A DNA stretch of 64,000 nt from Candidatus Saccharimonadota bacterium (GTDB lineage: Bacteria; Patescibacteriota; Saccharimonadia; Saccharimonadales; Saccharimonadaceae): NCBI GenBank assembly GCA_016196195.1, contig JACPYF010000010.1, forward strand, positions 4,110 through 68,109, written 5' to 3'. Position numbers and translations under genes: made by a program. The notes beneath the pieces are model-generated. The model was not told where the DNA came from. It saw only the letters and a program-made list of their open reading frames with translations, and did not search any database. The stretch's first letter is position 1. Every line of letters starts with the position of its first letter. Shown here one piece after another: positions 25,459 to 29,836 of the stretch.

Positions 25459-26328
25459 ATGATACTCAGCCCCGAGCAGCGGGCCGAGAGGTTCGGTAAA
25501 TCGCCAGCTGAAGTAGAGTCCATGTCAAAGGAAGAAATCGATGAGTTCAACCAGGAAAAAGGCGCCGAACGTATGAAGAAATTGGCGGTCAAGCACGCAG
25601 TAGCATTTTTGGAAGAAGCGTTTGAAGAAGGATTAGTTCTAGACAATCAAGGCCTCAGGGACGCAGTAACACTCGTGATGGCTAACTTGGCGGAAACTTT
25701 GTACAAAAAAGAGGGTAATGTCTCGGACCTTGAAAGTTATGCATTTACTGTGCATCCGTTTCTAAAGGAGCACATCGAGCAAGTAATAAACTTAGCAACT
25801 CACGATATGCTGACTGGTGCTTTGAACAAGTTTGGTCTGGAATGGTATATATCCGAAGAGCTCGATAACATTGAGGCTGGACTGAGCATCGACCTGAAGG
25901 ATTTTAAGAAAATTAATGATAGATTTGGTCATCAACGTGGTGATGAAGTTCTGAGAGACGTAGCGAAGATATTAGAACGTGCACTGAGAGATCACGACAA
26001 AATTGCCCGTATCGGGGGTGATGAGTTTTTCGCAGTTTTGAGCGACAAGTCCAAGGGTGGTAAAACCGAAGAGGGTCAAACTATCCGTCTTCAGGATAAA
26101 AAGCTTGACGCAGCCGAAATTGCCGATATAGCAGCGGAGCGTATTGCTAGTGAGTTGCAGGTATATTTGGACAAAAACCCAAACCTGGTTGATATAGGAT
26201 TTGATATTTCAGTAGGTTCGGTTGTTTGGCGTCATGGGGTATCAACAGAGGTGTTGATGGATGAGGCGGATAAAGATATGTACGCGCATAAAAAGCGCCA
26301 GCGAGCAAAGAATGGTCAGTACAGATAA
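25459..26328 (+). CDS. diguanylate cyclase (GGDEF domain with RxxD I-site), helical N-terminal region
   Basis: LTGALNKFG...DLKDFKKINDRFGHQRGDEVL...RDHDKIARIGGDEFFAVL. The start is uncertain (ATG 25459 or 25522). The ORF-track start 25363 overlaps ychF. Confidence 0.82.
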   Translation: MILSPEQRAERFGKSPAEVESMSKEEIDEFNQEKGAERMKKLAVKHAVAFLEEAFEEGLVLDNQGLRDAVTLVMANLAETLYKKEGNVSDLESYAFTVHPFLKEHIEQVINLATHDMLTGALNKFGLEWYISEELDNIEAGLSIDLKDFKKINDRFGHQRGDEVLRDVAKILERALRDHDKIARIGGDEFFAVLSDKSKGGKTEEGQTIRLQDKKLDAAEIADIAAERIASELQVYLDKNPNLVDIGFDISVGSVVWRHGVSTEVLMDEADKDMYAHKKRQRAKNGQYR

Positions 26329-26452
26329 CCTTTGGCGAAATAATAAATAAACTGCAACGAAGCTGCCTATAATTGATCTTTATACAATAAATATTGTAAA
26401 ATAAACAAAATAGACTAGTAAAATTCACCTTACAAAGGAAGACAAATCTATA

Positions 26453-27241
26453 ATGCAAATTGAAAGATGGGTGGATATAATCCAATCTACAATTCAGAAA
26501 AGTGCCCGACTGGACGAGGTGGTTGTAGTATTAGATTGCGGTCACTTTGATAGCAAACTAGGTGTTGATGATTTTTCCATAAATTCTACAAATATTGCTG
26601 GTGATATTTATATGCTTTCAAGAAGGCTTAGAAAGAAGGGCCTGAAGTTTGTATTTAGTGTTCTCAGGGACGATGTTGGTATGACCTGTAGTTTGGACGA
26701 TGACAGCTGTGAAGTTGATGGTCGACACCAAGCTACCGAGCATCAGGTGCCAGCAGAAATTTTAAAATCGCTACAAAAAATTGAAGGCTTTCGTTCCGAG
26801 AAAGTAAAATTATTTTCGGAAAAAACTGCCCGAAACCGTGGTATACAATTTTTTAGAAAACAGAAAAAGATGGACGCATTGGGAAGCAACTTTTTGCTTG
26901 AAAAAAAAGACGACCAGAGCAAGCTTCTTTTTCGGCTAAGCGATGATAACAAGGTGCTACTGGCTGATATATTAGATGATGCACATTGGATCGGTCATTG
27001 CCCGCTACTTATGGGTATGCATTATGTCGATATAGCTGCATGGGCAAAAAAGATCTATATAGACAAGAGCAAGGTTTTAATCATTGATTTTTCTATGAGT
27101 TATGACAAGGGAAAAGTGAATGCCGGTGCTGAGGTAGCTTTGGACCTCAACGCTCCACAGGGTACATTGCTGGGAATTATTAATGTGTGTAGTTCCGATG
27201 AAGAATTTACCGTACACACAACGGACATAAAGGTTGCCTAG
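26453..27241 (+). CDS. hypothetical protein, first gene of a coupled three-gene unit
   Basis: 262-aa ORF, visibly lower G+C (22/60 on line 26521). Several Cys/His pairs (LDCGH, IGHCPLL). The stop TAG overlaps the GTG of the next gene. Confidence 0.5.
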   Translation: MQIERWVDIIQSTIQKSARLDEVVVVLDCGHFDSKLGVDDFSINSTNIAGDIYMLSRRLRKKGLKFVFSVLRDDVGMTCSLDDDSCEVDGRHQATEHQVPAEILKSLQKIEGFRSEKVKLFSEKTARNRGIQFFRKQKKMDALGSNFLLEKKDDQSKLLFRLSDDNKVLLADILDDAHWIGHCPLLMGMHYVDIAAWAKKIYIDKSKVLIIDFSMSYDKGKVNAGAEVALDLNAPQGTLLGIINVCSSDEEFTVHTTDIKVA

Positions 27242-28398
27242 TGATTTACCTAGACAATAACGCTACGACTAGGGTTGACGATGAGGTTGTGTCGAGCATG
27301 ACGCCTTATTTTCGTGATATATACGGCAATCCTTCCAGTATCCACACCCTTGGCTTAAAGGCTAAAACTAGTGTTGAGGCAGCAAGAGAAGAGGTAGCTA
27401 GTGTTATTTGTTCCAGCGCAGGAGAGATAATGTTCACTTCGGGTGCAACAGAATCCAACAACACCGTGCTAAAAGGAATTTTTTTCCGTGGCTTTTTAGA
27501 TGGTGAGAAAAACCAACATTTTATCATTAGCTCGATAGAGCATAAATGTATTCTCGAAACTGTCAAATTTATCGAGAAGATGGGGGCTGAGGTGACAATT
27601 CTTCCGGTCAACAACCAAGGCCTAGTTGATATAGAAGATGTTAGAGCCGCAATAACTAGTAATACCGTGCTTGTTTCAATAATGCTTGCTAATAATGAGA
27701 TAGGTTCAATCAATCCAATACGTGAAATAGCGGCTATATGCAATAAAAATGATGTACTATTTCATACCGATGCTGCACAAGCTTTCGGGAAAATACATAT
27801 TGACGTGGGGGAGCTTGGCGTAGATTTCTTATCTAGTTCAGCGCACAAACACTACGGACCAAAAGGGGTAGGAATACTTTTTGTTAAAAGTGGACTTAGA
27901 GATAAGCTAGTACCACTTATGCACGGGGGTAATCAAGAAATGAACCTACGCTCAGGCACAATCAATACACCATCGATTGTTGGAATGGCCAAGTCTGTTA
28001 GTCTATTTTGTTCAACCTCGTATGTAAATGCAGAAATGGTTAAACAAGGGAAGTTAAGAGATTATCTTTATGCTGAGATTAAGAAGAATATTCCTAGCGT
28101 TATATTAAACGGCCCACCCCTAGACAAGAAACATTTAAGACTTGCAAACAACTTGAATATTAGTTTCCCCGGAATCAACAAATCGGTATTTAACAGAAAA
28201 ACTTCTAAAATCATGTTTTCTACTGGCTCCGCATGCTCTAGCGCCGACCTTACCGCTTCTTATGTTTTAAAAAATATTGGGCTAGAAGACGATTTGGCAC
28301 AAGTTTCGTATAGGTTTGGCTTGAGCAAATACACAACAAAACAGGATATTGATGAAGCAGTATTAATTATCAAAAACGCCCACAGGTTAGCGTCATGA
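27241..28398 (+). CDS. cysteine desulfurase (NifS/IscS-like, class V aminotransferase)
   Basis: IYLDNNATT, GNPSSIH, PLP-lysine SSSAHKHYGPKG, RSGTINTP, active-site loop STGSACSS. Confidence 0.88.
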   Translation: MIYLDNNATTRVDDEVVSSMTPYFRDIYGNPSSIHTLGLKAKTSVEAAREEVASVICSSAGEIMFTSGATESNNTVLKGIFFRGFLDGEKNQHFIISSIEHKCILETVKFIEKMGAEVTILPVNNQGLVDIEDVRAAITSNTVLVSIMLANNEIGSINPIREIAAICNKNDVLFHTDAAQAFGKIHIDVGELGVDFLSSSAHKHYGPKGVGILFVKSGLRDKLVPLMHGGNQEMNLRSGTINTPSIVGMAKSVSLFCSTSYVNAEMVKQGKLRDYLYAEIKKNIPSVILNGPPLDKKHLRLANNLNISFPGINKSVFNRKTSKIMFSTGSACSSADLTASYVLKNIGLEDDLAQVSYRFGLSKYTTKQDIDEAVLIIKNAHRLAS

Positions 28399-28883
28399 TA
28401 AGGCCAATTACCAAATCATCAATCAGGAACCAGCATCCGGAGATCTCTAATACGGACGAGCTATGCGGTCTTGCGTGCATTGCCATGATGATAGATAAAA
28501 AAAACCATCAACCTACTATTCCTCAGCTATATAAATTACTTGTTCGAGGAAACGCATACGTTAAAGGCCTTGGCCTTGTAATGTCTAAAGTGCCAAAGGC
28601 CCTAAAAGGCTATGGTGTAATTTACCTCCCTTATCTACCATATTGGCTCGTTGTAGTTCTGTTAAAGTTTGGGTATGTTTTTGCAGCCTCAATCAAAACA
28701 CCTCAGGGTAATCATATAATTTTATTATACAAAAGTAGGCCGTTTGGCTTTTCTTATCATTTACCAGAACTTCAATATATAGATCCAAATCAAGCTGTAG
28801 ATTCGGGCCCACTGTCTATGTCATATACTGAGTGGAGGAGGATTACGAATTATCGTTTGCTATTGACAAAACAGGTTAAATAA
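28395..28883 (+). CDS. stand-alone C39-like papain-fold cysteine peptidase domain protein
   Basis: NTDELCGLACIAMMI matches the catalytic-Cys motif of C39 peptidases, and GNHIILLY is the candidate catalytic His. ATGA overlap with the desulfurase gene. Confidence 0.55.
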   Translation: MIRPITKSSIRNQHPEISNTDELCGLACIAMMIDKKNHQPTIPQLYKLLVRGNAYVKGLGLVMSKVPKALKGYGVIYLPYLPYWLVVVLLKFGYVFAASIKTPQGNHIILLYKSRPFGFSYHLPELQYIDPNQAVDSGPLSMSYTEWRRITNYRLLLTKQVK

Positions 28884-29098
28884 GATACAATAAAACCATT
28901 CAATCGACAAGTGCGGTTGGAGGTATTGGTGCGTTGAGTTTTTTGCTCCGCACAAAATTAACAATTTGCGTGTTAGATTTTTTCGCGAGATATTCTCTCG
29001 GTTAGACTGTTTGTTTGAAACAAATAGGTGGTCTGACCGAGGGAATCCTTCCCGAGGCGTCAACCAATCTCTGGTTGAAGCCAGAGAGGAGGAAACTC

Positions 29099-29836
29099 AT
29101 GAAAAAGATTAAGATCGTATCGGCCGTGATACTGCTGTTTGTGGTAACACTGACGTGTATCACTACAGCCTCGGCGGCTCAGAAGGGTCAGCTCGACAAG
29201 TTCGGTGGAGTTGCGTCATACAAGAGTGATGGTTCGCTCATGCCACTGAAATACACGTGGAGAATGCCCGGACTACTCGTTACGGCAACCCTGCCAAACG
29301 GGTACCAGGCAGATACGCCGACGAAAGTTGTGGTGACCTACAAGTACCTCAACGCGAAGCTGAAGGAAGGTCGTAAAAAGACGACCTACCGGAAGTGGTT
29401 TGGCAAGCGCAAGTTGCGCAGGCTGAGCGTCGAGCTGTACTCAAGGTGGTGGAATACAGGGCTGAAAAGCTTTGAGCTTCTGCACGTTAAGCAGTTCCCC
29501 AAGCCCGTTTCGATGGGCAGAACGCGAACTGTTACGCTTTGGGTTACATACCCGTGCGTACAGCCAGTTGATTTGGCGTTTTTGCAGCCTTTCTACGGGG
29601 ACGTTGCGAAGCTGCCTGACTGGAAGTGCATGCCACCAACACTCACCATCAAATTCGATGCGATCATTACCCGGTCTCGTCCGCGAACGTTCGCGACGTT
29701 CAGCCACCAGATCAGCCAGAGAGGGGCTTTTGTGTATCCAGCGCCCGCTGCTACACCCACAGCCCCACCTCCGGTAGAACCCACAGGCCCAACAGGTCCT
29801 AGCGACCCCACTGGCCCAACTGGACCCACTGGTTGA
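29099..29836 (+). CDS. secreted protein with collagen-like GPT-repeat C-terminus (GC-rich cassette)
   Basis: Signal peptide MKKIKIVSAVILLFVVTLTCITTASA|AQ, GAGGAGG SD, tail PTGPTGPSDPTGPTGPTG. G+C is 34-35 of 60 on sampled lines, against 10-24 of 60 in the next gene. Confidence 0.7.
   Translation: MKKIKIVSAVILLFVVTLTCITTASAAQKGQLDKFGGVASYKSDGSLMPLKYTWRMPGLLVTATLPNGYQADTPTKVVVTYKYLNAKLKEGRKKTTYRKWFGKRKLRRLSVELYSRWWNTGLKSFELLHVKQFPKPVSMGRTRTVTLWVTYPCVQPVDLAFLQPFYGDVAKLPDWKCMPPTLTIKFDAIITRSRPRTFATFSHQISQRGAFVYPAPAATPTAPPPVEPTGPTGPSDPTGPTGPTG

Follow-up and report, generated by a model that had tools for sequence, protein, structure and literature searches.

What does a cysteine desulfurase do in an operon whose other two products match no Pfam family? 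The question is raised by three overlapping genes in the genome of a Candidatus Saccharimonadota bacterium (assembly GCA_016196195.1), within a stretch of 64,000 nucleotides (nt) of contig JACPYF010000010.1 (positions 4,110 to 68,109) that we call the window. A first reading of the DNA letters (hereafter the original prediction) saw a translationally coupled triad consisting of an unknown protein, a NifS-like cysteine desulfurase, and a stand-alone C39-like peptidase, and suggested a sulfur-relay or peptide-maturation module. We find that the operon is most likely a dedicated sulfur-transfer (thiolation) module, and its main novelty is gene 1, which represents an unnamed and rare synthetase-fold family tied to cysteine desulfurases. 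Our preferred reading, to which we give a probability of roughly 45%, is that of a horizontally acquired accessory operon whose core, a dedicated desulfurase and a partner protein of the HUP class, would act as a sulfur-transfer pair.

The three genes lie exactly where they had been placed, all on the forward strand, as judged from the list of open reading frames (ORFs) with their translations. Gene 1 (26453-27241) has an ATG start and encodes a protein of 262 residues, P1; gene 2 (27241-28398) has a GTG start and encodes an IscS/NifS-type (group I) cysteine desulfurase of 385 residues; and gene 3 (28395-28883), again with an ATG start, encodes P3, a stand-alone C39-like papain-fold candidate of 162 residues. 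The TAG stop of gene 1 (27239-27241) and the GTG start of gene 2 (27241-27243) share one base in the string TAGTG, and genes 2 and 3 overlap in the ATGA at 28395-28398, as described before. Every motif quoted in the original prediction (LDCGH, IGHCPLL, SAHKHYGPKG, STGSACSS, ELCGLACIAMMI, and GNHIILLY) is present in the translations.

Gene 2 matches Pfam Aminotran_5 (PF00266) with an E value of 1.1e-79 over residues 2-371. It keeps the pyridoxal phosphate (PLP)-binding lysine, K203 (SAHK), and the catalytic cysteine, C332 (STGSAC), that had been read from its sequence, and both are invariant when it is aligned with four other desulfurases; by its fold, PLP lysine, and loop cysteine it is a group I (IscS/NifS-type) enzyme. 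Its scores stay under the NCBIfam equivalog cut-offs for NifS (405.9 versus 530.75 bits), IscS (384 versus 548 bits), and DndA (364 versus 480 bits), and by sequence comparison it forms a clade of its own, in which the nearest relatives co-occur with relatives of P1. The same genome encodes another desulfurase of 390 residues, 38% identical to gene 2, on a different contig (L003, G000:C32:25234-29334). We take gene 2 to be an extra, dedicated copy because this second desulfurase sits by an MnmA-like gene; it lies two genes upstream of that predicted tRNA 2-thiouridylase, with a 215-residue gene between them.

P1 belongs to a family of about 260 residues that is rare and, as far as its sequences tell, previously undescribed. 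It has no match in Pfam (E ≤ 0.1) or PADLOC, meets only sigma-factor models in NCBIfam, far under their cut-off (19 versus 260 bits), and returns a single row from PHROGs (E 0.033). With nothing meaningful from these four collections, P1 is not one of the known iron-sulfur (Fe-S) or tRNA-thiolation scaffolds that, according to the original prediction, would make the pathway an ordinary one. Searching PDB sequences with P1 and P3, and with profiles built from each, returned no significant match. A word-indexed search with P1 retrieved 14 proteins at 44-100% identity, none of them named, and when a profile was run exhaustively against 1.84 billion cluster representatives, 121 of these, mostly of 250-290 residues, matched at E ≤ 1e-3. 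In 30 members examined with Pfam, the P1-like part was never assigned to a family. The phage collection held no P1 relative, and in the plasmid collection a single record was matched, by three different queries.

The family has a strongly conserved core. Among 108 near-full-length members, out of 136 aligned, Cys183 is invariant (108/108), followed by N128 and D212 (107 each), G225 (106), G30 and Y191 (102 each), C86 (98), E123 and R129 (96 each), and C79 (93); C79, C86, and C183 are found together in 93/108 members. Position 31 is a histidine in 67 members and a tyrosine in 35, and H190 is kept in 87; Cys29 and Cys246 of the window protein are not conserved across the family. Four signatures describe these proteins: [E/D]-x-G-[H/Y]-F-D after strand 1 (DCGHFD in the window protein), DDVG-x2-C79-x6-C86, SEKTARNRG, and W-x-G-H-C183-P-x2-M-x-M-H-Y-x-D.

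The original prediction recognized no motif in P1, and here the structure model goes beyond it, revealing a HUP fold like that of class I aminoacyl-tRNA synthetases (aaRS). An AlphaFold2 model built on a 14-sequence alignment has a mean predicted local distance difference test score (pLDDT) of 90.4 and a predicted template modeling (TM) score of 0.88, and shows a single Rossmann-like beta-alpha domain into which a small beta-hairpin is inserted. In a Foldseek search of the PDB the top matches are the catalytic domains of ArgRS, class I LysRS, CysRS, and MshC, with E values from 5e-6 (4.9e-6) to 1e-3, and MshC and CysRS have the lowest root-mean-square deviations (rmsd) in that search, 6.1 to 7.4 Å. 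VIA-align places ArgRS first (6ao8_A; Z 14.3, rmsd 4.6, 210/262 residues aligned), and its ranks 1-33 are class I aaRS (including GlnRS, MetRS, and CysRS), MshC, GluQRS, and PyrN; its matches include MshC (3c8z) with Z 10.7, CysRS with Z 10.7 to 9.3, GluQRS with Z 9.8, and TyrRS with no more than Z 8.4-9.2. The PP-loop enzymes argininosuccinate synthetase and NAD synthetase come lower in Foldseek (probability 0.98-0.99, TM ~0.30), and none of them appears in the top 50 of VIA-align. In the model, conserved residues gather at strand C termini and helix N termini, as in an active-site crevice, with Cys183 at a helix N terminus. P1 therefore looks like an enzyme in the predicted structure, and its relationship to the aaRS, as far as the model goes, is one of fold only. 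With the catalytic domain of this class and its stand-alone paralogues (ArgRS, CysRS, MshC, GluQRS/YadB) the model of P1 shares the fold. Its sequence, in contrast, is not similar to theirs and lacks both HIGH and KMSKS on reading the alignments; as a single domain of 262 residues P1 has no anticodon-binding or tRNA-recognition domain, and it carries signatures of its own that include the invariant Cys183.

We considered the DCGH string of P1 as a HIGH motif and rejected it, as it stands at the end of strand 1 rather than where a helix begins, and family members have E, Q, or D at its first position. The PP-loop position after strand 1 reads [E/Q/D]-[G/A/C]-G-[H/Y]-[F/Y]-[D/E] across the family. 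P1 has no Pfam match to cyclodipeptide synthases, and no chain of such an enzyme is among the structural matches listed. The Atlas look-alikes LPD16, DIT1_PvcA, and Peptidase_C39_2 (10% of one cluster) are possible leads.

The evidence for a tie between P1 and cysteine desulfurases comes from other genomes. The conserved core of the operon is the pair of gene 1 and the desulfurase, not the triad, because P1 relatives turn up again with a desulfurase, as its neighbor in Pseudoalteromonas and in another Patescibacterium and joined to it in metagenomic fusion proteins. In Pseudoalteromonas sp. NC201, on a 1.24-Mb replicon, a P1-like gene (286 residues) is followed by a desulfurase gene and then by a class I/II aminotransferase gene; this desulfurase has 402 residues, is 42% identical to gene 2, and keeps SAHK and STGSACSS. 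Divergent to this locus are genes for a flavin amine oxidase, a thiamine diphosphate (ThDP) enzyme, and a flavin adenine dinucleotide (FAD)/BBE oxidase, neighbors that hint at a small-molecule product. In the Patescibacterium genome G1008, a distant P1-like gene divergently adjoins an Aminotran_5 gene. Two natural fusions of a P1-like domain with Aminotran_5 (P0138 and P0140) have 664 residues and a complete Aminotran_5 domain. In this fusion clade the desulfurase loop reads STGSAY, with the catalytic cysteine lost, and the C79/C86 pair of the P1-like part is absent, with Cys183 kept; the joint loss, seen in a single clade, fits a functional tie between the desulfurase cysteine and C79/C86. 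Metagenomic data point the same way. The longest contigs of seven among the 12 metagenomic P1 relatives (P0003-P0014), of 3615, 3574, 28767, 5258, 30580, 13571, and 34839 nt, each equal in size the longest contig of a desulfurase from the 13 best non-self matches to gene 2 (50-64% identity), and an eighth case of equal size (21115 nt) joins the superfamily member P0019 to a lower-ranked desulfurase match, P0185. From the equal sizes alone we infer that relatives of P1 and of the desulfurase share these contigs.

The triad as a unit, for which the original prediction had proposed a survey of other genomes, was found in one of them, from the same genus, and beyond the genus what recurs is the pair. 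The second species of the genus (L001; G977/G978, apparently one assembly) encodes proteins of 263, 385, and 162 residues, 89%, 88%, and 83% identical to those of the window, in genes with 4-nt overlaps. The arrangement is beyond chance because the same three genes with these overlaps are found in the second species. In a further Patescibacterium, G456, a P1-like gene overlaps a downstream gene for a 217-residue protein, P0151, with a Pfam Peptidase_C39 domain; we return to this protein below.

A mechanism can be proposed from these observations. Desulfurases of this family form a persulfide on their loop cysteine with sulfur from L-cysteine, which is established chemistry, and gene 2, here seen as intact residues only, would perform this first step. 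The sulfur would then be passed to P1, either onto Cys183 or to a site at which Cys79, Cys86, and Cys183 hold a metal or Fe-S cluster, and the nucleotide-binding-type crevice of P1 might be used to insert it into an activated substrate. P3, as a lineage-specific third component, would probably cleave or transfer a peptide- or amide-linked substrate or product through Cys24 and His107. What carries this reading is an intact desulfurase, a confidently modeled enzyme-like partner with an invariant cysteine, the recurrent adjacency or fusion of the two, and a recurrent link between P1 and C39-like proteins. Of the two functions first suggested, sulfur relay is the better supported half; peptide maturation has gained no support, with neither a double-glycine (GG)-leader ORF nor an exporter at the triad. 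A complex prediction for the desulfurase and P1 gave interaction scores (ipSAE) of 0.00 and 0.01 against a mark of 0.32 and, run without controls, speaks neither for nor against binding.

Several results weigh against the sulfur-transfer pair. The loop at residues 78-93 of P1, which carries C79 and C86, has a pLDDT below 50, and proximity of the three cysteines is not derivable from the model. Profile comparison of the P1 family by hhalign with 24 ArgRS and 24 CysRS, in alignments built from relatives' sequences, gave probabilities of 0.9% and 0.3%. Our alignments show no HIGH before helix 1 and no KMSKS, and P1 has neither an SGGxDS PP-loop nor a PP-loop match in Pfam or NCBIfam; use of ATP is thus unproven. 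The AlphaFold2 model of P3 is poor (pLDDT 51), with a best Foldseek E value of 1.0 in the PDB and a best VIA-align Z of 4.9. The full triad was not found outside close relatives. G456 has two desulfurases elsewhere, one of them beside IscU, and none adjoining its P1-like gene, and in genome G1144 a short P1-like gene stands beside a weak methyltransferase-like gene, again with no adjacent desulfurase. At the triad we identified no substrate gene, Fe-S scaffold, GG-leader peptide, or Dnd/Ssp partner. The loss of the desulfurase cysteine in the fusion clade indicates that accepting a persulfide is not the function of every family member. All of the biochemical steps above are proposed from genes and models.

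The structural matches of P1 also bear on another possibility, in which it would be a cysteine or thiol ligase of the MshC/CysRS kind. C79, C86, and C183, perhaps with H190, would bind a zinc ion that holds a thiol or persulfide, cysteine or persulfide would be joined to an acceptor to yield a low-molecular-weight thiol or persulfide, and P3 would serve as an amidase or transpeptidase. CysRS and MshC have an active-site zinc, their structures are matched with the lowest Foldseek rmsd and with the Z values given above, and the pattern of three conserved cysteines plus His190 (87/108) would suit such a site. ArgRS scores above them (Z 14.3), however, the family is as remote from CysRS in hhalign as reported above, the HIGH and KMSKS motifs are missing, and the cassette holds no acceptor-forming genes, all of which makes a ligase of this kind very unlikely in our view.

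Sulfur transfer between a group I desulfurase and a HUP-class partner has well-known precedents. In the pairs IscS-ThiI, IscS/YrvO-MnmA, DndA-DndC, and SspA-SspD, as in the triad, the desulfurase is encoded beside a Rossmann-like (HUP) enzyme with conserved cysteines, and DndC is a HUP-class enzyme. To our knowledge, every characterized ATP-dependent sulfur acceptor belongs to the PP-loop or the E1-like class. P1 differs from the partners in those pairs in having no SGGxDS PP-loop and in that its nearest structures are class I aaRS rather than PP-loop ATPases. In natural-product biosynthesis, a NifS-like desulfurase works with a thiouridylase-like enzyme in thiotetronate clusters, and YcfA/YcfC act in the formation of 6-thioguanine, again with PP-loop enzymes as partners; the triad follows the same logic, a PLP enzyme with a HUP-type enzyme dedicated to metabolite sulfur, and the oxidase, ThDP-enzyme, and aminotransferase neighbors of the Pseudoalteromonas locus recall such clusters. 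Small-molecule thiolation of this kind is the subject of PMC5518548. PMC10853773 describes DndC as having a three-cysteine 4Fe-4S site that is served by DndA. P1 resembles DndC in its number of cysteines, with three conserved in 93/108 members, and is about half its size. Among the papers listed by full-text literature searches, none reported a desulfurase coupled to an aaRS-like or papain-like protein, and the words HUP, papain, and aminoacyl do not occur in the text of PMC10853773.

These parallels raise the question whether the desulfurase and P1 form a minimal counterpart of DndA-DndC or SspA-SspD in conflict or defense, thiolating DNA or RNA or making a thiolated nucleotide. The PADLOC models for SspA and DndA match gene 2 at ~1e-137, but they fit any IscS-like enzyme to the same degree, among them the generic desulfurase domain of an unrelated fusion protein, and gene 2 falls under the NCBIfam DndA cut-off as stated. 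The cysteines of DndC have a parallel in P1. In addition, five remote representatives of ~650 residues (P0095, P0121, P0122, P0123, and P0133) combine an N-terminal TIR domain of the CBASS/Pycsar type (Cap12/PycTIR-type), a middle part without an assigned family, and, at the C terminus, a P1-like domain that retains both the CxnC and the Cys183 motif; these TIR proteins are only remotely related (E 5e-9 to 5e-4), and in them the domain may serve as a sensor. An extremely patchy distribution and residence in a variable slot, which holds another two-gene cassette in another species, would also suit a conflict system, and TIR fusions and slot together hint at conflict functions. Against this, the DndC model TIGR03183 has no match in the window's own genome (assembly G000, 587 kb, 84% complete), in which the PAPS_reduct matches are on contigs other than that of the cassette. 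No DndB, DndD, DndE, SspB, SspC, or SspE gene adjoins the triad and the cassette neighbors include no Dnd/Ssp partner, although model searches did not extend to DndD, DndE, SspB, and SspC; no PADLOC model matches P1, P3, or any of their relatives; and the cassette encodes no nuclease or other effector. We regard a role in conflict as unlikely on balance.

Gene 3 leads to a further alternative. P3 has three relatives at 73-87% identity and no Pfam match at E ≤ 0.1, and its classification draws on G456, where P0151 occupies the same position, directly downstream of a P1-family gene. P0151 matches Pfam Peptidase_C39 (PF03412) at 1e-7 (32.3 bits versus a cut-off of 22), with weak C70 and C39_2 matches as well. 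The homology of P3 to P0151 is significant though modest, at 26% identity over 165 columns. BLASTP gives an E value of 3e-9 in a pairwise comparison and, against 1480 ORFs, one of 3.4e-6, the runner-up having 0.24; hmmsearch --max gives 3.4e-4, the next match 0.55. The candidate catalytic residues of P3, Cys24 (ELCGLAC), His107 (GNHIILL), and Asp130 (YIDPN), are invariant in 4/4 family members and align with C82, H168, and D189 of P0151, and the model puts Cys24 at a helix start and His107 on a strand. The C39-like call of the original prediction is thereby supported indirectly, through homology to P0151 with Cys, His, and Asp aligned, and not by a Pfam match or a fold model of P3 itself; judged by sequence, the most fitting label for P3 is that of a C39-like protein of clan CA whose Cys/His pair is intact. 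Like peptidase C39, the double-glycine leader peptidase domain of bacteriocin ATP-binding cassette (ABC) exporters, it has an xCGxxC cysteine predicted at a helix start, a strand histidine, and an aspartate; unlike those domains it is stand-alone and looks cytosolic, is itself undetected by Pfam, has no ABC transporter or GG-leader gene with it, and is partnered by a sulfur-enzyme pair.

A C39-type protein in a sulfur operon brings to mind the maturation of ribosomally synthesized and post-translationally modified peptides (RiPPs), with P3 removing a double-glycine-type leader and P1 and the desulfurase installing a thioamide, thiocarboxylate, or thiolactone. The protease and HUP-ATPase logic of the lasso-peptide B and C enzymes provides an analogy. 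Such a route would accommodate the C39-type cysteine motif of P3, whose homologue passes the Pfam C39 threshold, and the recurrence of the P1-C39 adjacency in G456, with a protein upstream that has a transglutaminase-type Cys-His-Asp arrangement when inspected by eye only. The search for GG-leader peptides proposed in the original prediction came back empty, though, with no plausible small ORF in the flanks of the triad and no conserved small ORF in G456 or Pseudoalteromonas; no ABC exporter is found in the triad neighborhood; and Pseudoalteromonas and G1008 have the P1-desulfurase pair without a peptidase. RiPP-like maturation is in our estimate quite unlikely.

The protein upstream of the P1-like gene in G456 is P0152 (L009 8359-9165, reverse strand; 268 residues), in which the transglutaminase-like Cys...His...Asp was seen; it has no match in Pfam, NCBIfam, or PADLOC, and its gene is preceded by one for an AAA_33 kinase. 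Genes for TrmB-family helix-turn-helix regulators adjoin the distant P1-like genes in G1144 and G1008 (L053 2505-3230, reverse strand; L054 6650-7447, forward strand). In another relative, P0094 (465 residues), the P1-like domain follows an N-terminal part of ~220 residues without a family match, which by eye resembles the C-terminal portion of an ATP-grasp enzyme.

The distribution of P1 and the structure of its locus show that the cassette is accessory and optional for the organism. Within the genus, one of the eight other genomes has P1; it occurs in 0/400 other sampled genomes of the order and in 1/400 of a phylum sample, and around G456 in 0/204 other genomes of its order and 2/400 others of its class, counts that refer to samples in which some genomes are incomplete. 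Comparison of DNA within the genus delimits the cassette as an insert between the stop codon of a GGDEF gene (26326-26328), directly after which the left junction lies, and a conserved promoter with its leader, where the right junction (28860-28891) contains a strong promoter-like sequence, TTGACA-17-TACAAT, at 28863-28891 on the forward strand. The slot is empty in G980 (L048), holds the triad in the window's own genome and in G978, and in G984 (L047) holds a different two-gene cassette encoding proteins of 355 and 107 residues, neither with a family. The leader 3' of the right-junction promoter (~210 nt, within 28860-29099) is 70-90% identical across the genus and precedes an exported-protein gene at 29100.

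Base composition sets the insert apart as well. At 0.390, the guanine plus cytosine (G+C) content of the insert (26329-28862, 2534 nt) is the lowest among 1230 windows of the same size (mean 0.443, sd 0.014). Genes 1, 2, and 3 have 0.399, 0.396, and 0.384 versus 0.443 for the 64-kb window, bearing out the lower G+C that had been noticed, and their G+C at third codon positions is 0.34-0.37, versus 0.39-0.47 in eight other genes of the window. The region before them (26329-26452, forward strand) is AT-rich as described, with a G+C of 0.266; at 124 nt it is of moderate length only, rather than long as had been claimed. It includes a promoter-like site, TTGATC-18-TAAAAT, at 26373-26402 on the same strand.

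These data leave little room for an ordinary housekeeping operon for Fe-S assembly or tRNA thiolation, or for a chance juxtaposition of unrelated genes. Gene 2 is, to be sure, a typical IscS/NifS-like enzyme, and a routine role would be natural for it. The genome has another desulfurase beside MnmA, however, the cassette is absent from 7/8 other genomes of the genus and from 400/400 sampled genomes of the order, and its genes overlap and recur as pairs and fusions in other phyla; as originally noted, Pfam searches of the flanking genes found no IscU, Suf, ThiI, or MnmA gene adjoining the triad. We disfavor this explanation and consider it highly improbable.

The sulfur-transfer pair, our preferred reading, matters beyond this locus. 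Dedicated pairs of desulfurase and acceptor define the routing of sulfur into cofactors, tRNA, DNA, and antibiotics, and the P1 family, which accompanies a desulfurase in two bacterial phyla and is joined to one in metagenomic fusions, is a testable candidate for new sulfur-transfer chemistry, with the cultured Pseudoalteromonas sp. NC201 and the natural fusion proteins as experimental handles. In these reduced epibionts, functions in host interaction or conflict might also be sought in the variable slot directly upstream of a pilus locus. A bolder extension, which we put forward as a doubtful one, would make P1 a third structural class of sulfur-insertion enzyme, next to the PP-loop ATPases and the E1-like/rhodanese systems: a miniaturized class I aaRS fold with a three-cysteine (Fe-S or Zn) site and an obligate desulfurase partner, sometimes fused to it and elsewhere wired to TIR domains, which in Saccharibacteria, together with the C39-like protease, would make a thiolated peptide or metabolite from a swappable cassette by the pilus locus, for interaction with a host or competitor.

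Upstream of the cassette, Pfam identifies genes for EF-P, an FtsJ-type methyltransferase, YchF, and the GGDEF protein; downstream, exported proteins without a Pfam family are encoded ahead of a type IV pilus operon. Rfam, searched with 26200-29200, has nothing that matches at E ≤ 1. The -35 region of the conserved downstream promoter also encodes the end of P3 (LLTKQVK). A degenerate copy of the ~30 nt of this promoter-like site is found at the left junction (26330-26358), and G984 has a good copy at its left junction, so that the cassettes are flanked by a direct repeat of the promoter. The 355-residue protein of the G984 cassette has a coiled-coil-like N terminus and a His-rich C terminus. 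CysRS (PF01406) has no match above cut-off in the window's own assembly and is present in 25/25 relatives searched (E ~1e-54 to 1e-98); most likely the gene is unassembled at 84% completeness. In G978, from the second species of the genus, CysRS and the cassette are both present.

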